64,000 bases of DNA from an uncultured virus (IMG/VR IMGVR_UViG_3300024255_000019) (lineage: Duplodnaviria > Heunggongvirae > Uroviricota > Caudoviricetes), in IMG/VR virus record IMGVR_UViG_3300024255_000019; one strand, written 5' to 3'. The notes beneath the pieces were generated by a model. It made no database searches. It was not told the origin of the DNA and saw only the letters and a program-made list of their open reading frames with translations. This document shows positions 87-56,141 of the stretch, piece after piece. The translations under genes were made by a program, and so were the position numbers. Each line of letters starts with the position of its first letter. The stretch's first letter is position 1.

Positions 87-377
87 TTACCTTCTAGCTT
101 TGTAGCTATATGTTAATCTTTCTTGTGATGCCTTTTTGAGCCATCTCTTTCTGCCCTCTGCAGCTTTACGCTTTCTTTTTGCAGTTGGCTTTTCATAAAA
201 TTCTCTAGCTCTTAGTTCTTTTACGATCCCAGCTTTTTCAATCTGTTTTCTAAATTTTCTAAGTGCTATATCAAAAGGCATATCACTTTGAGGCCTTCTA
301 TCTTTTGGATGTCTTGGCCCTGGTCTCAAATCAACGGTTCTACCGTTAATTGGTTTATTTTTATTATTGTATCTCAT
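87..377 (-). CDS. rpsU: 30S ribosomal protein S21 (phage-encoded bS21)
   Basis: [38 protein letters not shown] matches the bS21 signature. Start moved to ATG 377, directly below a promoter. Confidence 0.93.
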
Positions 378-384
378 AGGTATT

Positions 385-413
385 ATTATAACATAACAAA
401 AACGATTTGTCAA
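385..413 (-). promoter_or_regulatory. sigma70-type early promoter for rpsU
   Basis: TTGACA (413-408), 17 bp spacer, TATAAT (390-385), with TGn extension. Confidence 0.85.
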
Positions 414-3751: not shown

Positions 3752-4167
3752 TACTTAAATAATCCTATCTTCTCTCCGGCTTTAATTCTACGGTCATATT
3801 CCTCAGGTGAGTCTGGATATCTCCACCCCCATGCTGCTCCTAGTGCCATAAAGGTACCAGAATAAGCTACTGCTTTCCAGTTTCCTGTGAATACAATCAT
3901 ACACAATAAAGCAAATGCCATAAATCCTAACATCATGTACTTTGCTTTTCTTGGGAATACTTTCTTTGTTTCCCAATTTGTTAAGAATGGTCCAAATAAT
4001 TTATGGTTATATAACCAATTGTGCATTCTATCTGAACTCTTTGCAAAACAATATGCTGCAAATACTGCTGGAATACTAAATGGTATCCCTGGTAGAATCA
4101 CTCCTACGTAAGCAACTCCTAAACTTAAAAATCCTAATCCACCCCATGCTAACTTTTTCATGTTCAT
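3751..4167 (-). CDS. ybaN: YbaN/DUF454 family inner-membrane protein
   Basis: GVILPGIPFSIPAVFAAYCFAKSSDRMHNWLYNHKLFGPFL matches the DUF454 pattern. Confidence 0.85.
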   Translation of the reverse strand: MNMKKLAWGGLGFLSLGVAYVGVILPGIPFSIPAVFAAYCFAKSSDRMHNWLYNHKLFGPFLTNWETKKVFPRKAKYMMLGFMAFALLCMIVFTGNWKAVAYSGTFMALGAAWGWRYPDSPEEYDRRIKAGEKIGLFK

Positions 4168-4433
4168 GTTAATATCGCCTTGATGTGTTCTGCAGATACT
4201 ATAACTGCATCTTGTCCACCTATACGCACTGGCATAGCTTTATCCCAAGATAGATATACTGTATCACCTTTGTTTAAGTGTGCTGCACTTGTGGCAGGAC
4301 CTACTGCAATTACAACACCAGGTTCTGATGCTGTTGCTTTAACTTCAGATGATAATATAATACCACCTTCTGTTTTATTTTCTTTTGGAGCAGCTGCTAC
4401 TAACACTTGCTCACCTATCATTTGAATACTCAT
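4164..4433 (-). CDS. groES: co-chaperonin GroES (gp31-like)
   Basis: KTEGGIIL mobile loop; GVVIAVGP. Confidence 0.88.
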   Translation of the reverse strand: MSIQMIGEQVLVAAAPKENKTEGGIILSSEVKATASEPGVVIAVGPATSAAHLNKGDTVYLSWDKAMPVRIGGQDAVIVSAEHIKAILT

Positions 4434-34687: not shown

Positions 34688-35386
34688 CTATACTTCTTCA
34701 AATAAAACTTTGTTGACATATTGGTCTTTGAGTTCTTCGGATATTCCCATCTTCAGAATAGAAGTATGTAGCATACGATTGAGCTTCTGATTACGGCAAT
34801 ACTTGTTCTGTGCTTCTATTGTATTGAGTTCCTTGTCTTGTCTATAGATAGGATTTCCCATTTCGATTGTATAAAATGAAGCAAGATTGATTGCCATTTG
34901 ACAAAGTTGTTCTGTCTCTTCGCCTTCTCTTATCGCTCCTGCTCCTACAATATTAGGACTAAATATTTCCATAGCCCAATCAGGCATGACCCTTGCACGG
35001 GTCCATGTTAACCCTTCAGTCTCGTACTTAAATTTATCTAGATAGGAGTGAGGGCCTTCAGTAATAGGAGAATAGTCACAGAAACATCCAGAGATTTTTT
35101 TAGGATTTGCAACTATATCCAAACCAAAAATTGGTAAGTTAACATGAGGCTGTGGAAATACATTGATATGCATTAGCCAAAGTTTGTTCTTACCAACTGG
35201 TTCTATTGTCTTTAAATGAGCTTTACGAATTGTATCGCTTTCCCAAAAATAATCTGACCATCCCGGCAAATCACCAGCGTGAATATGATTAGGGTTTTCA
35301 ACTCTTGTCATAGAGGAATCAAAGTCATCTATGAGTCTTGCTGCAAGTTTTCTTAATTGGTCAAATAATTCTGAGTCAACTATCAT
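34688..35386 (-). CDS. pcyX: ferredoxin-dependent bilin reductase, PcyX/PcyA-like
   Basis: MHINVFP...LPIFGLDIV carries the His/Asp pair of PcyA/PcyX; PDWAMEIFS; QNKYCRNQKLN; coupled to heme oxygenase. Confidence 0.82.
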   Translation of the reverse strand: MIVDSELFDQLRKLAARLIDDFDSSMTRVENPNHIHAGDLPGWSDYFWESDTIRKAHLKTIEPVGKNKLWLMHINVFPQPHVNLPIFGLDIVANPKKISGCFCDYSPITEGPHSYLDKFKYETEGLTWTRARVMPDWAMEIFSPNIVGAGAIREGEETEQLCQMAINLASFYTIEMGNPIYRQDKELNTIEAQNKYCRNQKLNRMLHTSILKMGISEELKDQYVNKVLFEEV

Positions 35387-35994
35387 TCGTCAAACTTTTG
35401 AAGTTCTGTTAATATTGTTTCACTGCTATCATAATCTTCTGGATTGTCGTGATAGAGTTCTATAAGTTCAAAGAACATGCGCTCTGCGAATTCAAAACAT
35501 ATTCTAGCTTCATCAGCCATATCATCATCAAGTAATGCTCTTACTCCAGTGATAAGTGCTTTCCTGTCGTCAAACTCATACATAGCTCCAGTACCAGGAA
35601 CATGTTTCTTAATAATTTGACCACCGTGAGCATCACCAAAATGTCTTACATATAAATGAGCTAATAAACCAGTATTGTTTCCGTCTTCGTAGAGTACGTC
35701 AATGTGTTTTTGATATTCAACTACGCTCTTTAAAGGTTCTTCAACTTCATCAAAATCATACATATTTTCGATTTCAACTAAATCATCTTCGATTTGTGTT
35801 GACCTAAAAATAGATTCTAATTCGATGGGTATTGTAACTGCACTTTCAAGTGCTGAATAGTTAGCTAATTGAGCTGCTAAATATTGTTGATATAGTCTTG
35901 GTGGAATATTTCCACTCAATAGCATATCTGCGAATTCTGTTCGTTCTGCGTTATCGTGATGCTCTTTGGTGAGAGCTTTAAGGTTGTTTGACAT
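35383..35994 (-). CDS. hemO: heme oxygenase
   Basis: LKALTKEHHDNAE proximal His; AHLYVRHFGDAHGGQII distal helix; start moved to MSNNLK. Confidence 0.93.
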   Translation of the reverse strand: MSNNLKALTKEHHDNAERTEFADMLLSGNIPPRLYQQYLAAQLANYSALESAVTIPIELESIFRSTQIEDDLVEIENMYDFDEVEEPLKSVVEYQKHIDVLYEDGNNTGLLAHLYVRHFGDAHGGQIIKKHVPGTGAMYEFDDRKALITGVRALLDDDMADEARICFEFAERMFFELIELYHDNPEDYDSSETILTELQKFDE

Positions 35995-36030
35995 TGATGA
36001 CTCCATTATATTGTTGGTTTTCACAAAGCT

Positions 36031-37887: not shown

Positions 37888-38426
37888 TAGCTTGACCTTA
37901 TTTCTATATCTTTACGATAGTGCTGGGGTGCATCAATCTCTACTATAGCAGGACAAGTCACTGTGATTGTCTCTGTAGTATTAACTAATTCGTTGTTAAC
38001 CCATATATAAGAGTCATCTGTTGGAATGTCTGAGATGGTCACTGATGTATTAGCAGGTACGGTAATTTCACTAAAGTCATTAAATAAAACTAATGTTGGT
38101 TCGTCTTCTGCGTCTGCTCTACCTATAGTTACAGGTAATCCAGTTTCTGGGTCTGCAATACCAGCGATTTCAGTATTAGAAAAGAAATCTTTATCTACTG
38201 CTGTATGCGAATAGGTTAAACTCACTTCAGTTTTATCCATTATTGTATTAGCAGAAAAATCCCACCATTTTGTTTCATTGGTAAGTTCATTACCATCTGG
38301 TATTCTAACAACATGAAAGTTGGTATTGGCAATAGACCAATCTCCAAATGCTTCAATGTTATCATCGTTCATGCCTTCGAGTGCACTGTCGATTCTACCT
38401 GATTGTGTGTTTGCTACAAAATACAT
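37887..38426 (-). CDS. putative tail-associated protein
   Basis: Acidic, beta-rich; coupled to the S74-type gene. Confidence 0.6.
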   Translation of the reverse strand: MYFVANTQSGRIDSALEGMNDDNIEAFGDWSIANTNFHVVRIPDGNELTNETKWWDFSANTIMDKTEVSLTYSHTAVDKDFFSNTEIAGIADPETGLPVTIGRADAEDEPTLVLFNDFSEITVPANTSVTISDIPTDDSYIWVNNELVNTTETITVTCPAIVEIDAPQHYRKDIEIRSS

Positions 38427-38599
38427 TATTCTTTATCAGACTCTTGTTGTATTAACTCTTTAACTTTATCGAGCTTATACCACAGTCCACTATACATGGT
38501 TTCTCTACCATCAGCATGAACTGCAATATATCTTTTATAGCCGTAAGGTCTTTCAGAAAATAATCTAATACCTTTATAACTATACTCGAATAATCTCAT
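38426..38599 (-). CDS. hypothetical protein (57 aa)
   Basis: Translated by hand (MRLFEYSYKGIRLFSERPYGYKRY...); fills the gap between ORFs. Confidence 0.6.
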   Translation of the reverse strand: MRLFEYSYKGIRLFSERPYGYKRYIAVHADGRETMYSGLWYKLDKVKELIQQESDKE

Positions 38600-38608
38600 A
38601 GCTATTTA

Positions 38609-38815
38609 TTAATCAATTAACAATTGAATTAAGCCTGAGTTCCAATTTTCTGCAACATCGTTTGCATAGGATTGACTTTTACCTGGTAACTTACGAGACT
38701 CTACGACTCTTCCGTTCTCAATTAAGTCAACTACATACATGGAATCTGGTCCACTGCTTCCACTTGCGTTATCGCCTTGAACTGTTTCTCTACGAATTGA
38801 ACTACTTCTACTCAC
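38609..38815 (-). CDS. hypothetical protein
   Basis: KSQSYANDVAENW motif; GTG start. Confidence 0.65.
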   Translation of the reverse strand: MSRSSSIRRETVQGDNASGSSGPDSMYVVDLIENGRVVESRKLPGKSQSYANDVAENWNSGLIQLLID

Positions 38816-39071
38816 CTAATACCTCCCAACCTTCTACGGTATCTAATCTAAATGATCGCCATGCGTCTTTATCTAATGCCCATACTGGAAACGCTTCAGT
38901 GTCTGTACCTTGTACATTGACTTTATTCGTTACTCCATTGGCTTCTAATACTACTGGGTTAAGAGTGCATGGCATTACTCTCAACTCACCAGTGTCAATT
39001 TTACGAAAAGATACAGTTACTGTTCCTTTCTTTAATGCTTCTAGCAAATTACCTTTTTCACTTTGGTTCAT
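38808..39071 (-). CDS. SH3/WYL_2-like small protein
   Basis: VTVSFRKIDTGELRVMPCTL...WRSFRLD; start moved to MNQSEK. Confidence 0.8.
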   Translation of the reverse strand: MNQSEKGNLLEALKKGTVTVSFRKIDTGELRVMPCTLNPVVLEANGVTNKVNVQGTDTEAFPVWALDKDAWRSFRLDTVEGWEVLGE

Positions 39072-39087
39072 AATATTTCCTCTAAAT

Positions 39088-39164
39088 TGGCCTCCCCTGA
39101 GAGATTCGAACTCCCGACCGCCTGGTTCGTAGCCAGGTACTCTATCCAGCTGAGCTAAGGAGAG
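39088..39164 (-). tRNA. tRNA-Arg(ACG)
   Basis: Full cloverleaf; anticodon arm CCTGG-CTACGAA-CCAGG; TTCGAAT T-loop; encoded CCA. Confidence 0.96.
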
Positions 39165-39179
39165 ATGTTGTAATATGTT

Positions 39180-39208
39180 ATTATAACACGTTTGCTTTAA
39201 TTTGTCAA
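39180..39208 (-). promoter_or_regulatory. sigma70-type promoter for tRNA-Arg
   Basis: TTGACA, 17 bp, TATAAT. Confidence 0.85.
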
Positions 39209-39493
39209 CCCCAAAAGAGATTGCCACCAGTTAAGCCAAAATAAGCCGTGGTCTTTCATAATACCCACAGCCAAAAATGACCATCCTACTCCGTTTAAAA
39301 GTATTAGTGCTCTGTCTTCCCATAAGATGGAAACCCACATCCACAATCCAATACCAATAAAACTAAAATATAAATCTAATAAATGGTAATCTTGACCAGA
39401 TGAGCGGAATATAATAGCAGATAAAACAAAGAAACTTGCTACCCACTTAATATACCAATCTAATTTCTTTTCACCACGTTCACTACGTATCAT
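39197..39493 (-). CDS. three-TM membrane protein (paralog of the next gene)
   Basis: WYIKWVAS...W.DRALILLN. Confidence 0.75.
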   Translation of the reverse strand: MIRSERGEKKLDWYIKWVASFFVLSAIIFRSSGQDYHLLDLYFSFIGIGLWMWVSILWEDRALILLNGVGWSFLAVGIMKDHGLFWLNWWQSLLGLTN

Positions 39494-39888
39494 TTTATAA
39501 GCTCCGCTAAATTCATCAGTACTGCTGTACCAGTGATTGCACTACCAATCATAATTGCTTTATCATTCCAACATTGACCAACATATACCCAAGCGATCGA
39601 GCTCAATGCATATGCTATTTTACCTTCTGTCATAAACCCTGCACTTTGTAGAAATACGCCAACGACAGCAAAAATTGTTGCTATCCATTTAACATAACTA
39701 TCTAATCCACCTGTTGGTGTACTAGGTGCAAATGTATCTACCTGTTCTTGAAGTTCTTCCATTTCAGCACGAAGGCGACTACGTTCAGCATTGAGCTCCA
39801 TAGCCAACTTTCCAGCTTTAGACATTGTACTTTCTTTGTACTGTTCTTTAACTTCTTTTTTCATAGCAAGGACCGGGTCAGAAACCAT
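39490..39888 (-). CDS. coiled coil plus three-TM membrane protein
   Basis: YVKWIAT...WNDKAIMIGS. Confidence 0.75.
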   Translation of the reverse strand: MVSDPVLAMKKEVKEQYKESTMSKAGKLAMELNAERSRLRAEMEELQEQVDTFAPSTPTGGLDSYVKWIATIFAVVGVFLQSAGFMTEGKIAYALSSIAWVYVGQCWNDKAIMIGSAITGTAVLMNLAELIK

Positions 39889-40073
39889 TAAGTTAATGAT
39901 TCCGTATTTGTAATATGTTCTGTTGGTATATCAACTATAATACCATCAAGTCTTCGCACGAATGTTGTCGAGTCACTGACTTCGTTTATTGTTCCAATTA
40001 CTTCTAATACAACACCTTCTTTAATTGGGTGATTGTAAGTAATCTTTTTTCTTCCTGCTGTTTCTGTACTCAT
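39888..40073 (-). CDS. hypothetical protein
   Basis: Start moved to MSTETAG; GAGG RBS. Confidence 0.65.
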   Translation of the reverse strand: MSTETAGRKKITYNHPIKEGVVLEVIGTINEVSDSTTFVRRLDGIIVDIPTEHITNTESLT

Positions 40074-40783
40074 TTTGTTTCCTCTTTTAAATATTCCATT
40101 GTTTCGTTCCAATCTTTTACATTGAATGTTTTACCATAATGACCGAGTTTAATCATCATTGCCAATGGATAATCGTTACCGCCGTGTTGACATTTATCTC
40201 CGTAGAAATATAATTCGTATTCTTCATTTAAATCATTAGCGATAATACTTTTGTTTAGCCCTTTCGGGTATATATCAATGGAAATTTGACCACCAATAGA
40301 TGTCTGTAAATCTTTAAACTGTTTCTCAATAAGGCCTGATAATGCTTTACGCTCATTGTGTACAGCGTCCCATTTAGCATATTCTTCTCTTTGATGTTGA
40401 GTACAATCACGACCAACAGTACTTAAATTAAGCATTCCTGTACGAACTTCAAGATGATTACCAGTTTTAATAGGATATCTTGAGTGGTGTATCATGTTTT
40501 CTAAATAATGTTTAATCTCGTATGATGGCTTCCAATCGTGATTTCTCACTCTTCGATTACCTTCCCATACTTCACCACCACTACATTGGTACACAGCTTT
40601 ACAAGCTTCGTAAATTTCAAAGCCTACTTGTTCAAATGTTTTTGGTCTATCAGAACCTGTTATGAGATAAACAGTATGCTCTTTTGCAAAAGCTAAAAAG
40701 AGTTCTTTAAATTCGGCATCCATAACACCTCTACTAGGAGTTAACGTACCATCTACATCAAATATATAAGCTTTTTCTTTCAT
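40070..40783 (-). CDS. HAD-IIB phosphomannomutase-like enzyme
   Basis: FDVDGTLT, ITGSD, GGQISIDI, YFYGDKCQHGGNDYP. Confidence 0.88.
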   Translation of the reverse strand: MKEKAYIFDVDGTLTPSRGVMDAEFKELFLAFAKEHTVYLITGSDRPKTFEQVGFEIYEACKAVYQCSGGEVWEGNRRVRNHDWKPSYEIKHYLENMIHHSRYPIKTGNHLEVRTGMLNLSTVGRDCTQHQREEYAKWDAVHNERKALSGLIEKQFKDLQTSIGGQISIDIYPKGLNKSIIANDLNEEYELYFYGDKCQHGGNDYPLAMMIKLGHYGKTFNVKDWNETMEYLKEETK

Positions 40784-40795
40784 AATCTATCTCAG

Positions 40796-40867
40796 TGGTG
40801 GAGCATGTAGGTTCTGCCCCTACAGAATCTTTTATTGCAAATAAGAGATTGGCCCTAGCCGTGCCCC
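40796..40867 (-). ncRNA. 72-nt tRNA-Ala-like / tmRNA tRNA-like-domain RNA
   Basis: GGGGCAC/ATGCTCC acceptor with G3-U70, A73 and CCA; T-arm GTAGG-GGCAGAA-CCTAC; long arm with TGC at the loop centre; no canonical D-arm. Confidence 0.8.
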
Positions 40868-40975
40868 ATGTTTTAAATATCCTTTTTTCATAGCCTTCTT
40901 GCGATCAGTATGCGTAGCAGGTTTATTGAACTTATTACAGTTCTTCGCTACTGGATTTAATTTGTTCCTTTCCAT
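40832..40975 (-). CDS. small basic protein (NPVAK...HTDRKK motif)
   Basis: Recurrent phage motif; its 3' end overlaps the tRNA-like RNA. Confidence 0.6.
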   Translation of the reverse strand: MERNKLNPVAKNCNKFNKPATHTDRKKAMKKGYLKHGARLGPISYLQ

Positions 40976-41114
40976 GTTTTCTAAACCTTTTGTTATATTG
41001 TCTTTTAATCTTCTTAACAACACCTGACCTATCTAGATATTTATAAAACTTACGAGCTGTTGTAAAGGCGTCATATTCGTCACCACCCTTCATTGGAATC
41101 TTTTTATCAGTCAT
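40935..41114 (-). CDS. small basic protein (59 aa)
   Basis: Translated by hand: MTDKKIPMKGGDEYDAFTTARKFYKYLDRSGVVKKIKRQYNKRFRK... Confidence 0.7.
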   Translation of the reverse strand: MTDKKIPMKGGDEYDAFTTARKFYKYLDRSGVVKKIKRQYNKRFRKHGKEQIKSSSEEL

Positions 41115-41316
41115 AAGCTTCTATACAAAGAGATTCTTTCTCACTAAAAGAATATCCCATTGCCTTCATGAAAGTTTCAAATATTTCAACCATGTCATCA
41201 CGTGATAAGTCTTTTTGCATCACATCAATAGTAACACGAGTATTAACAGAAGAGCTATGTTCGTAAGGATTACATATCAACTGAATGTATGGTTTTTCTG
41301 TAGCAGTTGCTTTCAA
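41107..41316 (-). CDS. hypothetical protein
   Basis: FETFMKAMGYSF motif; TTG start. Confidence 0.65.
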   Translation of the reverse strand: MKATATEKPYIQLICNPYEHSSSVNTRVTIDVMQKDLSRDDMVEIFETFMKAMGYSFSEKESLCIEAYD

Positions 41317-41339
41317 TGTTTCTTTCCTATCTCTAAAAG

Positions 41340-41426
41340 TGGTACCTCGAGCCGGACTTGAACCGGCAAGGCATTTCTGCCGAGGGATTTTAAGTCCCTT
41401 GTGTTTACCAATTTCACCACCGAGGC
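41340..41426 (-). tRNA. tRNA-Leu(TAA)
   Basis: AGGGA-CTTAAAA-TCCCT anticodon arm, long variable arm, CCA. Confidence 0.96.
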
Positions 41427-41432
41427 ATTAAT

Positions 41433-41508
41433 TGGCGCGCCTGGGAGGATTCGAACCTCCGACCAATAGCTTAGAAGGCTACTGCTCTATCCACTGAGCT
41501 ACAAGCGC
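41433..41508 (-). tRNA. tRNA-Arg(TCT)
   Basis: GTAGC-CTTCTAA-GCTAT anticodon arm, TTCGAAT, CCA. Confidence 0.96.
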
Positions 41509-41520
41509 GTTATTTGATAA

Positions 41521-41751
41521 CTAACTTAAGTAGTCTGCTAATTTTGGTCTATCTCTTCCGAACTCATCTTTAGGTGTAAACACAAAATTAGAGTAGTCCC
41601 TATACATTTCTAAGAATAAAGGAATCTCTTGAGCTATCGCTTGGATACGCTTAGATTCCTTACTACCCTTTTCCCACGCACGATGGTCGTCACTATAGTG
41701 ATAATACCAATCGTGCTTTTCCAACAATTTAAAAAATTCTGATGGTGACAT
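41521..41751 (-). CDS. hypothetical protein
   Basis: HDWYYHYSDDHRAWEKG motif, common in phage early proteins. Confidence 0.75.
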   Translation of the reverse strand: MSPSEFFKLLEKHDWYYHYSDDHRAWEKGSKESKRIQAIAQEIPLFLEMYRDYSNFVFTPKDEFGRDRPKLADYLS

Positions 41752-42170
41752 TAGCTATTTAAATCCTTCTCAAACTGTAGTACCATTTTGTTTTGTAAGC
41801 GTCGGGCTTCCTTTTCCCAAGGTTGGTCCCAATACTCTGTGTCTGTGTGGTCCCTACCTTTCCAATGCTGTAGTGAACTTGATAGTTCGCCACGAGCAAA
41901 TTGTTTGACGTGTACCATTTCGTGAGCAAGAGTTGATAACCAATTGCCATATAGACCAACATCGACAATAAAGTTACGAGTGTCGACAGATTCACAAAGA
42001 CCTTCAGAACTGTTTTCAACAAAAAGTTTATGGTGAAACTTTACGTGAATATTTGTTTTAAGCCTTGAGATTCCAAGCTGTTTTGAAAATGAATCAATAG
42101 CTATTAAAGCCATTGCATGAAGGTCATTTGGTACATTGCCACCACGAGGGCCGGTTATATCTACAATCAT
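41751..42170 (-). CDS. HExxH metallopeptidase-like protein
   Basis: TLAHEMVHVKQ...PWEKEA. Confidence 0.8.
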   Translation of the reverse strand: MIVDITGPRGGNVPNDLHAMALIAIDSFSKQLGISRLKTNIHVKFHHKLFVENSSEGLCESVDTRNFIVDVGLYGNWLSTLAHEMVHVKQFARGELSSSLQHWKGRDHTDTEYWDQPWEKEARRLQNKMVLQFEKDLNS

Positions 42171-42320
42171 TATATATTCCTAAGCAAATATTGCAATCAA
42201 AAGGATTAGTGTTAAAATAGTAAATGCATATTTGTACATTATTTCTAATCCTACTATAATAGTTTTTACAGCTAACACAGTAAAGAAAACTGTGATTAAG
42301 AAGTAAGCTATTAATTCCAT

Positions 42321-42560
42321 TTAGTATGTATCGCTAAAACCAGGTTTTTGCTCATACCCAATCTCAAGAGATGGATTGAACTTATCCTCAGCATAATACA
42401 AATCAAACGGTTGTTTGTCACGAGCTAAATTGTCTGCAGCTCGTTCGTTCTTAGCATTTTCTTTCATTGCTTGAAACTTTTCGTGAGAAGCTTCTCTATC
42501 CATTTGCTTCTTAATAGCTTTAAGCTCTTTCATTACAGCTTTATAAGATTTGTTTGACAT
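42321..42560 (-). CDS. hypothetical early protein
   Basis: GGAGG RBS; operon-packed. Confidence 0.7.
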   Translation of the reverse strand: MSNKSYKAVMKELKAIKKQMDREASHEKFQAMKENAKNERAADNLARDKQPFDLYYAEDKFNPSLEIGYEQKPGFSDTY

Positions 42561-42895
42561 TATGCTACCTCCCAGAGTCTTTCGTTAAATGCTTCTTTTA
42601 AGTAAACACTTGCAAGAACATTACGGCCACCAATGTGCCATTCATATCTTGGATTAGTTTTACATTCTAAGCCACCATCATAATCTTTCCAATTATAGAT
42701 TGTGACATCTTGCTCTTCGTTAAAGTCTGGCTCTGTGATTTTAAGATTCCACTCAACATCGACTTTTCCGTCGCCTGATGTTTCAGTGTATTGTGGTTCG
42801 CCGAAACAATCGACGAGGTCTTCGTAAGAAGCTGTGAGTTCGCCCTGTAAAGATGTTCCAGAGCTTGAGAAATTTTCTTTCACTTTATAATTCAT
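42560..42895 (-). CDS. hypothetical early protein
   Basis: GTSLQG...FGEP...DGKVDVEW...TIYNWK...WHIGG, a recurrent phage family. Confidence 0.8.
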   Translation of the reverse strand: MNYKVKENFSSSGTSLQGELTASYEDLVDCFGEPQYTETSGDGKVDVEWNLKITEPDFNEEQDVTIYNWKDYDGGLECKTNPRYEWHIGGRNVLASVYLKEAFNERLWEVA

Positions 42896-42930
42896 AATAT
42901 AGTTTCCTTTTCCATTAATTTATGAGTACT

Positions 42931-42959
42931 ATTATAACCTGTTTGTTTGCATTTGTCAA
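42931..42959 (-). promoter_or_regulatory. early promoter
   Basis: GGGTTGACAAA, 17 bp spacer, TATAAT. Confidence 0.85.
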
Positions 42960-42998
42960 CCCTTTTCGTTATAATAGTTTGTTATAAGGATATAACTT

Positions 42999-43211
42999 TT
43001 AATTCCTTTTGAGAATGTCTCGAGTCAATCCACCAAATGCCCAACAGAAATAGAGGAACAAAGGAGTAGCAATCATTAACCTGATGCTATCTTTTGTCAT
43101 GTTAACCAATTCCATAAAGTAAATTAGCCCAGCGAATGTAGCTGCAATTCCTGCTACAAGTGCAATTCCAAATCCAATGTCTTTCGACGCTTCAAATAGT
43201 TTGTTTTTCAT
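42999..43211 (-). CDS. small two-TM membrane protein
   Basis: Start moved to MKNKLF; GGAG RBS. Confidence 0.7.
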   Translation of the reverse strand: MKNKLFEASKDIGFGIALVAGIAATFAGLIYFMELVNMTKDSIRLMIATPLFLYFCWAFGGLTRDILKRN

Positions 43212-43212
43212 T

Positions 43213-43377
43213 TTAAACTCCGTGAGTAATGTGAGTGTATGCGTCCTCACAATCGTTTATTAATTCACCGCACATACAGGTGCTTTCTTCTTCAACTGAG
43301 GGTGCTCCAACTGCAGCTCTAATTTCTGCTTCTGTTGCACCTTCCTTTAAACCAAATTCTTTGTAATAATCAACCAT
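43213..43377 (-). CDS. small Cys/His protein
   Basis: CMCG...C..AYTHITHG; GGAGG RBS. Confidence 0.7.
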   Translation of the reverse strand: MVDYYKEFGLKEGATEAEIRAAVGAPSVEEESTCMCGELINDCEDAYTHITHGV

Positions 43378-43561
43378 GTAGCCCTCCTTGTAGCTCAAAC
43401 CTTTGTTGAACTAACTCTTCGATGAGTTGGTCCCTTGCATTGGTTCTAATTGCTAATGCTCTCCACGGCTGACCGAGTTCGTTTGCTATTTGAGCGTTTG
43501 ACATCTCGCAGACTTCATCTACAATTGACATCTTTGCCCATTCATTTGTTGTGTTGCTCAT
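43370..43561 (-). CDS. hypothetical early protein
   Basis: Start moved to MSNTTNE; AAGGAG RBS. Confidence 0.7.
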   Translation of the reverse strand: MSNTTNEWAKMSIVDEVCEMSNAQIANELGQPWRALAIRTNARDQLIEELVQQRFELQGGLHG

Positions 43562-43581
43562 AATATTCTCCTTTTCCTTTA

Positions 43582-43899
43582 TTAAGCTACTTGAGTAGAT
43601 TCTATCCACACCCATTTCCATGGTTCGTGGCATCCGCTCACTCCGATTGCAGAGTTGTCACATCCTCTGCCGTCTGACCAAATTTCCAAAGATATGTCGT
43701 CAAACATATTTTCAGTGAGTTTAACTTCTGGATAACGCTCATCTGAAAAGACGTCGCCTCCAGCATACTCGAAATCGATTGTTGATGGTCTTACAACCAT
43801 GTGGTCTTTGCTAAGCTTGTTAATTAAAGCTTGAACTCTTTGACCTTGTTCGTTCTTATAAAGAACTGTGTCACCGGTTTCTATCATGTCGTTTCTCAT
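43582..43899 (-). CDS. hypothetical early protein
   Basis: First gene below an early promoter. Confidence 0.7.
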   Translation of the reverse strand: MRNDMIETGDTVLYKNEQGQRVQALINKLSKDHMVVRPSTIDFEYAGGDVFSDERYPEVKLTENMFDDISLEIWSDGRGCDNSAIGVSGCHEPWKWVWIESTQVA

Positions 43900-43934
43900 A
43901 TTTTTTCCTTTTTCCATTTGGTTAATATAGGTCT

Positions 43935-43963
43935 ATTGTACACCGTTTTGTATCGTTTGTCAA
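43935..43963 (-). promoter_or_regulatory. early promoter
   Basis: GGGTTGACAAA, 17 bp spacer, TACAAT. Confidence 0.8.
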
Positions 43964-43982
43964 CCCTTTTTGTGAAAAAAGT

Positions 43983-44657
43983 TTAATTATTTTCAACAAA
44001 GTCATTAGCCATAGGAAAAATCGTTGAAATCACAGAGGCTACTTCTTTCGCGATATCCATGTGCTCAAGCTGAGTACCGTTACCAGAACGGAGCTCAATA
44101 AAATGAATCCAACTACGAAGGGTACCATTAACATACATACGAGAAATGGTGTTACCTTCTGGAAGTACTGCTCTAGCTTGTTCTTTTGCGATGCCATTGT
44201 CTATTGCCCACTTATATGCTGTTGTTGCTTCGTCGATAACTCTTTGTTGTACTTGATACCAACGATCTTGCAATCCACCTTGGTATTCATCAAGTCGGTC
44301 TATCTCAATAGAATTCTGTCTGTTCTTAAGGTCTTGTAAACGAGCATCTCGTACTTCAAATGCTAAATCAGTAGTAGGGTCTGCATAGCGTTGACTAAAC
44401 TCTTGGAATGAGAAAGAACGATGTCGTAGGATTTGGCGAGCAATATCACGAGTCGTTTCAATTTCAATACAAGCTGATACCATTTCTAAGGGTGACCAAT
44501 GCTTGTGTTTAATAAGGTACTTAACGAGCTTTTCATTTGTTTCCTTATTAGATTGATTAGATGGATTACTCACACGAGCACAATAGGCTATTAAATCAAG
44601 AGCTGAATCATTAGCTGCATGAGGAGCTTGAGAGTGAGAGATGAGTTTTACTTTCAT
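43983..44657 (-). CDS. thyX: flavin-dependent thymidylate synthase
   Basis: HWSPLE; RHRSFSFQEFSQRY ThyX motif. Confidence 0.96.
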   Translation of the reverse strand: MKVKLISHSQAPHAANDSALDLIAYCARVSNPSNQSNKETNEKLVKYLIKHKHWSPLEMVSACIEIETTRDIARQILRHRSFSFQEFSQRYADPTTDLAFEVRDARLQDLKNRQNSIEIDRLDEYQGGLQDRWYQVQQRVIDEATTAYKWAIDNGIAKEQARAVLPEGNTISRMYVNGTLRSWIHFIELRSGNGTQLEHMDIAKEVASVISTIFPMANDFVENN

Positions 44658-55115: not shown

Positions 55116-55533
55116 TATTGAGAAGATGTTCGATTATAAAAAGCCAACTGTGCAAATGTTAGGCAGATGGCAACCGTGGCATGATGGCCATACAGAATTA
55201 TTTAAAAAGTGTTTGACAATTACAGGACAAGTTGTTATAATGGTACGTGACGTGTTTAAATTCGAAGGTGATGCTGGAGCAGGTCGTACTGGAGTACAAG
55301 ACGACAATCCATTTGGTATGATACAAACCATTGAAGGTATTGAAAAAGGATTATCAGAGCATGGTTATTATAATGGCCAACAGTATCTGATTTTAGAAGT
55401 ACCAAACATTGTTGACATTAGCTATGGGCGTGGAGTAGGTTACACATTTACAGAGCATGATTTAGGAAAAGATATTCACGAGATATCTGCAACAAAAATT
55501 CGTAAAGAAATGAGAGAAGAAGGTAAATTATGA
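55108..55533 (+). CDS. HxGH cytidylyltransferase-like protein
   Basis: GRWQPWHDGH; YGRGVGY; ISATKIR. Confidence 0.85.
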   Translation: MIDIEKMFDYKKPTVQMLGRWQPWHDGHTELFKKCLTITGQVVIMVRDVFKFEGDAGAGRTGVQDDNPFGMIQTIEGIEKGLSEHGYYNGQQYLILEVPNIVDISYGRGVGYTFTEHDLGKDIHEISATKIRKEMREEGKL

Positions 55534-56141
55534 GATTAGTACCAAGTACTGACCCAATCCTTACTAAGGGACTGGAAGAGTTTGATTTTGAAAAAGTCAA
55601 AGAAATATTTGCAGATGCTGCAGACTTGAAAGAACAGATGGTTGACCTTATGGTAAAACATAAAGGTATTGGATTATCAGCTTGTCAAGTTGGATTAAAC
55701 ATGCGTTGTTTTGTAATTGGAGAAACAAGAGAATCTGCCATTATGGTAATCAATCCAAAAATACTTGGGTTTAGTGAAGAAACAGAATTAGCTCCAGAAG
55801 GTTGTCTAAGCTTTCCAGATATGTTTTTACAAATTGCTAGACCATCACAAGTATCAGCTGAATGGCTAGACGAACATGGTGAAAAACAAAGTGGAACTCT
55901 TGATGGATATGGTGCTCGATGCTTCTTGCATGAGTTTGACCATCTTAACGGAGTAGTATTTAGAAATAAAGTATCTCGTCTTAAATGGGAAAGAGCCCAA
56001 AAGAAAAAATCTAAAATTACAAAACAGCGTAACCAAGTAATGCAATACATGAAAATCTTAGAGCAAGCAGAAAAGAATAAAGCTGCAGTTGCTCAACAAG
56101 AAGAATCTGTAACGCTAGACTTGAGTACAGACAAGGACTAA
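55530..56141 (+). CDS. def: peptide deformylase
   Basis: GIGLSACQVG, EGCLS, HEFDHLNG. Confidence 0.95.
   Translation: MRLVPSTDPILTKGLEEFDFEKVKEIFADAADLKEQMVDLMVKHKGIGLSACQVGLNMRCFVIGETRESAIMVINPKILGFSEETELAPEGCLSFPDMFLQIARPSQVSAEWLDEHGEKQSGTLDGYGARCFLHEFDHLNGVVFRNKVSRLKWERAQKKKSKITKQRNQVMQYMKILEQAEKNKAAVAQQEESVTLDLSTDKD

Follow-up and report, generated by a model that had tools for sequence, protein, structure and literature searches.

A tRNA-like RNA gene in a phage tRNA cluster

The window analysed here is a stretch of 64 000 nucleotides (nt) from an uncultured virus of the class Caudoviricetes (IMG/VR record IMGVR_UViG_3300024255_000019), and the subject of the analysis is a small RNA gene, referred to below as the element, at positions 40796–40867 of its minus strand. 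This 72 nt sequence was delimited by its fold, by an end-to-end match to a covariance model of related tRNA genes (model R1) and by an alignment of three natural variants, and on this evidence it is a remodelled derivative of a tRNA-Ala gene. Its 5′ part overlaps the end of an open reading frame (ORF) for a DUF7230 protein of 47 amino acids (aa) (40832–40975, minus strand; Pfam E 9e-13; 48.6 bits, cut-off 27). A gene for a phosphomannomutase-like (PMM) HAD protein, which served as the synteny anchor, starts 12 nt past its 3′ CCA (40070–40783, minus strand; PF03332, E 1.5e-30). Canonical tRNA genes called by ARAGORN and Rfam lie on both sides and on the same strand, with tRNA-Leu(TAA) and tRNA-Arg(TCT) at 41340–41508 and tRNA-Arg(ACG), downstream in the cluster, at 39088–39164. 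This placement agrees with the original prediction, which had been made from the sequence alone and had proposed a miniature molecule resembling transfer-messenger RNA (tmRNA), with alanine identity and without a tag-coding domain.

The minimum free energy fold of the element (ViennaRNA) is cloverleaf-like and matches the predicted shape, and the predicted sequence and coordinates are also correct. The 5′ acceptor strand (element nt 1–6, 40862–40867) forms a 6 base pair (bp) stem that includes G3·U70 (G3 at 40865, its partner T at 40802). The opposite end of the molecule (40796–40805) supplies the 3′ acceptor strand (40800–40805), the discriminator A (40799) and an encoded CCA (40796–40798). 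The D region (40851–40860) has collapsed to a 3 bp stem with a 4 nt loop. The anticodon arm (40826–40850) is extended to nine stacked positions, eight pairs and one C·A, capped by a 7 nt loop centred on the anticodon TGC (40837–40839), and the T arm (40806–40824) consists of a 6 bp stem with the loop GGCAGAA (40812–40818). The acceptor and T stems form a stack of 12 bp, a tRNA-like length, in a 6+6 register. The canonical elbow features (a 4 bp D stem and a TTC-type T loop) are not present. A tRNA-like RNA gene with alanine identity, an encoded CCA, a shortened D region and a T loop of non-canonical type was thus seen as foretold, although the alanine-type set (G3·U70, A73 and 3′ CCA) is common to every tRNA-Ala and hence does not discriminate in favour of a tmRNA.

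The fold energy of the element in the window is −22.9 kcal/mol (z −1.9), with 9 of 200 shuffled sequences folding equally well; the variant at a related locus, L115, folds at −26.4 (z −3.5), and none of 200 shuffles was as good. A script scan of both window strands for a 12 bp acceptor/T stack followed by NCCA gave three matches, comprising two true tRNAs and the element, while the same scan of 20 window shuffles gave seven matches altogether.

The expectation that tRNA scanners would overlook this sequence was borne out by both programs that were run. ARAGORN called three tRNAs in the window, Rfam at gathering thresholds returned the same three only, and the element was not among them. At E≤10 on positions 40600–41000 (401 nt), Rfam gave five matches, of which none was a tRNA or tmRNA; no tRNA model matched the element at this limit and the RF00005 tRNA threshold of 29 bits was not reached. 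Neither a second tRNA-Ala nor a phage tmRNA was found by ARAGORN or Rfam in the 64 kb window, and tmRNA models had no match in one further record, G002. Among named phages, blastn with 121 nt found no close relative and a 1.1 kb query matched only two tRNAs. No description of the element turned up among the papers listed in broader literature searches, and no literature was found that names DUF7230 or GGCRGUA.

Descent from a canonical tRNA-Ala gene

Related loci were collected via the DUF7230 protein (80 loci) and via the PMM-like neighbour (29 viral and 58 metagenome loci). Of the PMM-linked loci, the 34 whose PMM genes are closest were inspected in detail; four contigs are present in both collections. 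In 15 of these 34 loci, a canonical tRNA-Ala(UGC) gene with an encoded CCA separates the DUF7230 ORF from PMM, in some of them together with a 45 aa ORF. Upstream of PMM, the remaining loci have a window-type element (6 of 34), a 53 nt form of the RNA (6 of 34), a tRNA-Thr gene instead (2 of 34), loss of the tRNA (1 of 34) or different neighbours (4 of 34). In two scanned sets, ARAGORN called tRNA-Ala(TGC) in 4 of 56 and in 10 of 26 loci. In lineages with a full tRNA the DUF7230 ORF also enters the tRNA gene and stops at a TAG within its first quarter, which falls in the D loop in some (tail RGAVAQ) and directly past the acceptor strand in others.

The R1 covariance model was built from nine of the orthologous tRNA-Ala genes. 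With filters off, it matched 40796–40867 of the minus strand over model positions 1–76 (16.1 bits, E 1.7e-4 in a search of 261 nt, the E-values of this model being rough); with default filters it missed the element and detected the 53 nt form (18.5 and 16.0 bits). In the alignment of the element with the model, the two correspond in the acceptor, the D-loop UAGGG, the entire anticodon loop, the T stem and the 3′ end; the D arm is about 5 nt shorter than canonical and the T loop is different. The anticodon loop of the element is identical in six of the nine aligned genes. All positions of the T stem are paired, although its sequence is not that of the orthologous tRNAs.

Comparison with the canonical tRNA-Ala(UGC) genes of related marine myophages (e.g. 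L117, 613–688; L019, 1312–1387) shows the same position between the DUF7230 ORF and PMM, the same strand and a common set of features comprising the first five acceptor pairs with G3·U70, A73, CCA and the D-region UAGGG. The element differs from them in its shortened D arm with a 3 bp stem, in an anticodon helix longer by four pairs, in a T loop of GGCAGAA rather than TTCGATT and in a 6+6 rather than a 7+5 stack. Unlike them, it is not found by ARAGORN or Rfam and its lower half is no longer invariant. The combination of positional orthology and end-to-end R1 alignment indicates that the element is a descendant of a phage tRNA-Ala(UGC) gene, remodelled in place, and not kin of tmRNA.

Two other loci show further states of the same gene. 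In L017 (~1310–1335), the tRNA-Ala is broken off after ~22 nt and is followed by unrelated genes. In L128 (~660–700) it has been cleanly deleted, while the close relatives L129 and L130 retain it.

The locus could also be read without any minus-strand RNA gene, with the T-arm hairpin acting as a plus-strand intrinsic terminator or the whole fold arising by chance in an ORF tail. Two terminator-like plus-strand sites do occur at 40806–40830, where the T-arm hairpin is followed by a T-rich run, against a shuffle mean of 0.4. However, all genes from ~38400 to 44650 are on the minus strand, the stem contains just three G-C pairs and the run of T is not continuous. Nor would a terminator explain why the site has acceptor pairing, a CCA, an anticodon loop and orthology with tRNA-Ala. 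We consider this reading very improbable.

Constraint differs between the two halves of the RNA

Three distinct window-type variants were available, namely that of the window (also in L085 and L166), that of L086, L114 and L116, and that of L115. They differ at eight sites (positions 9, 16, 21, 24, 29, 36, 37 and 43), all by transitions, and every change falls in the lower half or linker; none of the 35 sites in the acceptor strands, T arm and ACCA varies, and all six acceptor pairs are invariant. By comparison, 40 of 231 sites in the flanks (DUF7230 core plus the initial 120 nt of PMM) distinguish the window from L115 (17 %; Fisher test against 0 of 35, P=0.002). Synonymous divergence (pS) of PMM among the three variants is 0.25–0.43, and the 12 nt spacer directly 3′ of the CCA has one to three differences per comparison.

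The lower half behaves differently from the true tRNAs that accompany it. No differences were detected among the three genome variants in tRNA-Arg(TCT) (0 of 76) or tRNA-Leu(TAA) (0 of 87), compared with 8 variable sites of 37 in the lower half of the element (8 of 37 versus 0 of 163, P=7e-7). Between the window and L115 this half diverges at the rate of the flanks (7 of 37 versus 40 of 231, P=0.82). Pairing was kept or improved by all six stem substitutions, with 97 % of cells paired. Across the three variants, pair 9–16 occurs as G-C, G·U and A-U. At pair 24–36, U-A is replaced by C-G; in L115, a C-G takes the place of the C·A at 23–37; and pair 21–39 becomes U·G. In a simulation, seven random transitions at positions 7–43 left no broken pair in 5.4 % of cases. 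The accepting half of the RNA is therefore frozen, and the decoding half is drifting yet still paired.

These data bear on two outcomes that the original prediction had named in advance. Homologs that show a decayed ordinary tRNA-Ala pseudogene, or that fail to conserve the stems, were to count against it. The outcome is mixed: relatives do carry ordinary tRNA-Ala genes at the site, but the stems of the remodelled form are conserved. For the conservation of TGC and the covariation of stems, which were to be checked, the stems are kept, whereas L115 has CGC and the covariation is not significant.

An alternative is a dying tRNA-Ala pseudogene that has no function of its own and owes its apparent conservation to the overlapping ORF tail, to the region preceding the next gene and to a short divergence time. 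The lineage appears to be losing tRNAs, as the window has only three canonical tRNAs and relatives have up to seven in the cluster, and the gene is truncated in L017 and lost in L128. The element also fails every tRNA finder, its lower half evolves at the flank rate and contigs from RNA libraries run straight through it. Decay is nevertheless difficult to reconcile with an acceptor/T half that has no differences beside flanks at 17 % and a spacer with one to three differences in 12 nt, with stem substitutions that all keep or improve pairing, and with a T stem that is unlike those of the orthologous tRNAs and still fully paired. A second lineage, moreover, has independently kept the same half. 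The DUF7230 tail undergoes non-synonymous changes among the variants (P to S and L to S), so protein constraint does not account for the conservation. A pseudogene is thus an unlikely explanation, though we rank it first among the alternatives.

Positions 40654–40783 of the window, which contain more than the first 120 nt of PMM, are identical to those of L086, while the genes overall differ by 10 % and the DUF7230 core by 15 %. This suggests a recent mosaic exchange that ended near the element.

A 53 nt form in a second clade

A shorter RNA of 53 nt occupies the same site in another PMM clade (L124–L127, L091 and L092, at about 639–691; also L014 and L015). It has a 6 bp acceptor stem with G3·U70, a 4 bp stub with a 3 nt loop, a 7 nt linker, a 6 bp T stem and ACCA. 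The stub matches the former anticodon stem and the T loop is canonical (TTCAACT or TTCAATT); there is no D arm and no anticodon, and ARAGORN made no call. Its Rfam scores are weak (mascRNA 19.3 bits, permuted tmRNA 18.7, beta_tmRNA 15.6 and tmRNA 14.4). The mascRNA-type RNAs (RF01684), which are cut by RNase P from longer transcripts, have in common with these forms a tRNA-shaped top half inside a longer transcript. That family is eukaryotic, the score of the 53 nt form (E 0.03–0.05) is below the gathering value of 42.5 and the likeness is one of shape only; the window element itself was not matched by the mascRNA model.

A phylogenetic tree of PMM was reconstructed from 23 rows, leaving out loci on the same contigs as included rows (L085, L087 and L090–L092), near-identical loci (L114, L116, L126 and L134) and loci with the gene cut short (L166–L168). 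The clade with the 72 nt form had support of 98/97, and L117, which has a full tRNA, joins the same unresolved fork. The clade with the 53 nt form had support of 100/99 and was sister to L128–L130, which have a full tRNA or none. If the element has been inherited with its neighbour, the tRNA was reduced twice independently, with the mosaic exchange in this region as a caveat. Both reduced forms have kept the acceptor/T minihelix with G3·U70, A73, CCA and the 6+6 register.

Decoding

The element could still be a working, if odd, tRNA-Ala that decodes GCA or GCN, with the nine-position helix replacing the stack of D stem and anticodon stem; mitochondrial tRNAs that lack the D arm provide a precedent for such a stack. 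The anticodon loop is canonical in all three variants (7 nt, T33, NGC and A37), and the 12 bp acceptor/T stack, G3·U70, A73 and CCA are those of a tRNA-Ala. GCA is the commonest alanine codon in the 20 longest ORFs of the window (GCA 46 %, GCT 43 %, GCG 5 %), and the other phage tRNAs match the favoured codons AGA, TTA and CGT. Against this stand the variability of the lower half, which has no counterpart in the invariant tRNAs of the same genomes, and the L115 anticodon CGC, which would read GCG, the 5 % codon. The change from TGC to CGC makes little sense for a decoder. The T loop also lacks the TTC-type sequence of related elements, among which 49 distinct acceptor/T elements (script, 172 sources) comprised 45 with TTC-type loops, three of window type and one that was chance-like. 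In addition, no tRNA model reached E≤10 and the sister 53 nt form cannot decode. A decoding tRNA is therefore doubtful, somewhat more so than a pseudogene.

Resemblance to tmRNA

In its T loop, the element resembles the alpha-type tmRNAs. Two-piece tmRNAs are reported in the Methylophilales phage Melnitz and related marine myophages (PMC9004378). The Melnitz phage tmRNA (L174) was found here by RF01849 (106.7 bits) and by ARAGORN, and its acceptor piece has the T loop GGCAGTA; the Rfam alpha_tmRNA consensus is GGCgGUA. The GGCRGUA type that the original prediction gave for alphaproteobacterial tmRNA agrees with these sequences. The loop of the element matches that of Melnitz at six of seven positions, in a short post hoc comparison in which the Mosig tmRNA loop differs. 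Over the last 28 nt, covering the T arm, 3′ acceptor and CCA, the element shares 20 bases with Melnitz, compared with 15–17 for five orthologous tRNA-Ala genes, whose loops match at one of seven positions. Unlike the element, which is contiguous over 72 nt, the Melnitz tmRNA gene is permuted, exceeds 400 nt and has a tag ORF and pseudoknots.

A second parallel is the tmRNA of mycobacteriophage DS6A (L179, 1501–1583), which consists of a tRNA-like domain (TLD) only. It is likewise a phage small RNA with an alanine-type acceptor stem, a T arm and no tag frame, and it offers a possible way of acting without decoding. The DS6A sequence is reported to contain little beyond the TLD, and strong inhibition of tmRNA, perhaps through titration of SmpB, is described for a similar molecule (PMC4131195, PMC11915505). 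By analogy, the element might be alanylated and titrate SmpB or enter stalled ribosomes, and so block or replace host trans-translation. A tRNA-Ala would then have been converted in place to a tag-less TLD look-alike that competes with host tmRNA–SmpB on stalled ribosomes during infection. Conversion may have proceeded by collapse of the D arm and acquisition of an alpha-type T loop, through gene conversion from a phage or host tmRNA or through convergence. Besides the T-loop and 3′-end matches, this proposal is favoured by the D arm, which is reduced as in a TLD. It is also favoured by the Rfam result at E≤10 on positions 40780–40880 (101 nt), where alpha_tmRNA was the sole match, and by the nearest named phages in one protein search, which encode alpha-type two-piece tmRNAs (PMC9004378). 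A precedent thus exists for the mechanism, as does a plausible source of the T loop, and the evidence suggesting it here is a 7 nt resemblance.

Several results argue against a tmRNA. The alpha_tmRNA match, which covers the T arm and 3′ end, reached 8.8 bits (E 0.24), well short of the gathering score of 50, and is not significant. The element was not matched by RF00023, RF01850, RF01851, RF02544 or RF04321, either in the window at gathering thresholds or at E≤10 on 401 nt. As a positive control, the DS6A tmRNA scored 43.2 bits against RF00023, which shows that a real TLD-only RNA is detectable by the very test that the element fails. The tmRNA D-loop words, GGTTCGAC in Melnitz and Mosig and GGTCGAC in DS6A, are absent from the D region of the element, which is a 3 bp hairpin. 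A stemless D loop and a missing anticodon loop characterize tmRNA, and the element has neither, its anticodon loop being present with TGC or CGC. DS6A, in contrast, has GGTCGAC in the D loop, no anticodon loop and a 3′ end of ACTA, in which CCA is not encoded. The loop type is not universal in phage tmRNAs, as the Mosig sequence shows. No SmpB gene was found among the 87 distinct window ORFs scanned, which were drawn from 96 non-overlapping ORFs of at least 70 aa and three shorter ORFs. As a statement of kinship, ‘tmRNA-like’ therefore does not hold. By position the element is orthologous to a canonical tRNA-Ala(UGC), it aligns to R1 end to end, and the canonical anticodon loop, the missing D-loop words and 8.8 bits beside 43.2 for DS6A contradict the tmRNA reading as well. 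Functional mimicry of the TLD is improbable, less credible than a decoding tRNA and more so than a terminator. If true, it would represent a second, independent transition from tRNA to TLD, caught midway with the anticodon loop still in place, and the 53 nt form would mark a later step on that path.

The DUF7230 ORF and the wider phage genome

Element positions 1–36 double as codons 37–47 and the TAA stop of the DUF7230 ORF, codon 37 beginning at element base 1, and the stop (40832–40834) falls in the 3′ strand of the anticodon helix. Among 14 database homologs, the core of this small basic protein is common and the tails are unrelated, which indicates that the tail is read-through into the RNA element rather than a conserved peptide. 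Upstream lies a 59 aa ORF (40935–41114, minus strand) that is conserved in relatives, where its synteny is also retained; it and the DUF7230 ORF overlap in different frames. The overlap of this 59–60 aa ORF with the DUF7230 ORF is ~40 nt (40832–41114 of the window, minus strand) and is also seen in L006 and L014–L019.

The position of the DUF7230 stop codon inside a tRNA or tRNA-like RNA means that cleavage by RNase P would leave a non-stop mRNA. Regulation of arfA, whose mRNA is made non-stop by RNA cleavage, is comparable, and DUF7230 was accordingly considered as an ArfA-like rescue factor. This idea was rejected, as no similarity was found. A PDB profile search with DUF7230 gave a best E of 0.6 and no ArfA, hhalign of the DUF7230 alignment against Escherichia coli ArfA gave a probability of 0.24 %, and Pfam at E≤10 on 15 DUF7230 members returned DUF7230 and three stray single matches. 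In a protein atlas, one cluster (score 0.82) had ArfA in 12 % of its members, which is a lead only. A general rule that DUF7230 tails run into RNA structure was also rejected by comparison with upstream controls. The 47 distinct 90 nt segments past the DUF7230 core had a mean z of −0.99, against −0.65 for the controls (Mann–Whitney P=0.20), and z was below −2 in six of the segments and in ten controls. In L028, L031 and L037 (~1290–1380), the DUF7230 tail is encoded by a long near-perfect hairpin that is followed by a second small hairpin. These are the only loci with long hairpins there (z about −5.6, against an average of −1 in other loci), and the hairpins could be terminators or small mobile repeats.

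The gene content of the window is that of a marine T4-like myophage, with UvsW, UvsX, UvsY, gp32, gp41-like and gp59-like proteins, and also includes family B polymerase, topoisomerase II, RNR and ThyX. The nearest named phages, by tblastn with one 894 aa ORF, are Pelagibacter phage HTVC008M and the Methylophilales phage Melnitz group. Besides the tRNAs, genes for translation or folding comprise bS21 (87–413, minus strand), peptide deformylase (55530–56138, plus strand) and Cpn10 (4164–4430, minus strand). A heme oxygenase gene adjoins one for a ferredoxin-dependent bilin reductase (34688–36021, minus strand), a pigment-pathway pair familiar from marine phages.

A probably maintained minihelix

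The reading favoured here is that the element is a maintained, processed and probably alanine-chargeable RNA derived from tRNA-Ala, with the acceptor/T minihelix as its working part and little or no capacity for decoding; its probability is put at about one half. From the origin, structure and constraint pattern described above, we infer processing, charging and a role as follows. In the course of remodelling, the D arm collapsed to a 3 bp hairpin, the anticodon helix lengthened to nine positions and a T loop of TTCGATT type gave way to GGCAGAA, with the minihelix and its G3·U70, A73 and encoded CCA retained intact. The element would be transcribed from the minus strand together with the neighbouring tRNAs and small ORFs; sigma-70 promoter-like sites in 40500–41700 numbered three against 3.4 expected, and none overlapped the element. 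The acceptor/T minihelix is the part of a tRNA read by RNase P, 3′-end processing, alanyl-tRNA synthetase (AlaRS) and EF-Tu. Because the minihelix and CCA are what the processing enzymes read, the element is predicted from tRNA biology to be excised from the polycistronic transcript by RNase P and 3′-end enzymes, and because the acceptor-stem identity set is complete, host AlaRS would probably charge it with alanine. On this reading the accepting half is under selection, and the codon-reading half changes at about the rate of neighbouring coding DNA while remaining base-paired. Most probably, therefore, the product is a processed RNA that resembles a tRNA and accepts alanine, or a tRNA-shaped signal for processing between the DUF7230 ORF and PMM, rather than a normal decoder.

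A number of observations weigh against a maintained RNA of this kind. The fold of the window element, taken alone, is unremarkable. The statistics are weak, with just three distinct variants, and the covariation score was reached by 100 of 500 shuffles of these three sequences. The adjoining 120 nt of PMM are identical in the window and L086, so only comparisons with L115 are informative. Overlapping functions could yield part of the conservation, as positions 1–36 encode the ORF tail and positions 44–72 lie 13–41 nt before the next start codon. L128 has lost the tRNA, so at least one lineage can do without the site. Part of the stretch is present in 11 runs recorded as RNA; the four that were examined consist of assembled contigs only, which carry no RNA ends, strand or level. 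One contig (X2 record 18, 40752–40980) spans both ends of the element and another (X1 record 1) spans its 3′ end. Such bridging metatranscriptome contigs fit unprocessed RNA or DNA carry-over, and indicate at most that such RNA or DNA exists. A discrete 72 nt RNA, its charging and its cleavage by RNase P are predictions only.

Non-canonical and tRNA-like RNAs in phage tRNA clusters are already known, as are tag-less forms of tmRNA, and stable tRNA-like RNAs occur in T4 and T5. This case contributes a series of evolutionary stages that can be followed at one locus, a measured difference in constraint between the halves of the molecule and a tmRNA-type T loop on a tRNA-derived body. In natural sequences, the series runs from a normal tRNA-Ala through the 72 nt form and the 53 nt minihelix to complete loss. 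Phage tRNA clusters are annotated with scanners that recognize canonical tRNAs only, and remodelled descendants consequently stay unseen. The frozen accepting half and drifting decoding half point to a codon-independent use of an alanine-type acceptor/T minihelix, and the candidate roles are to signal processing, to carry alanine or to act as a decoy for a factor that binds tRNA or tmRNA. Together, the 72 nt and 53 nt forms provide a concrete set of substrates for probing a minimal alanine minihelix in infected cells.

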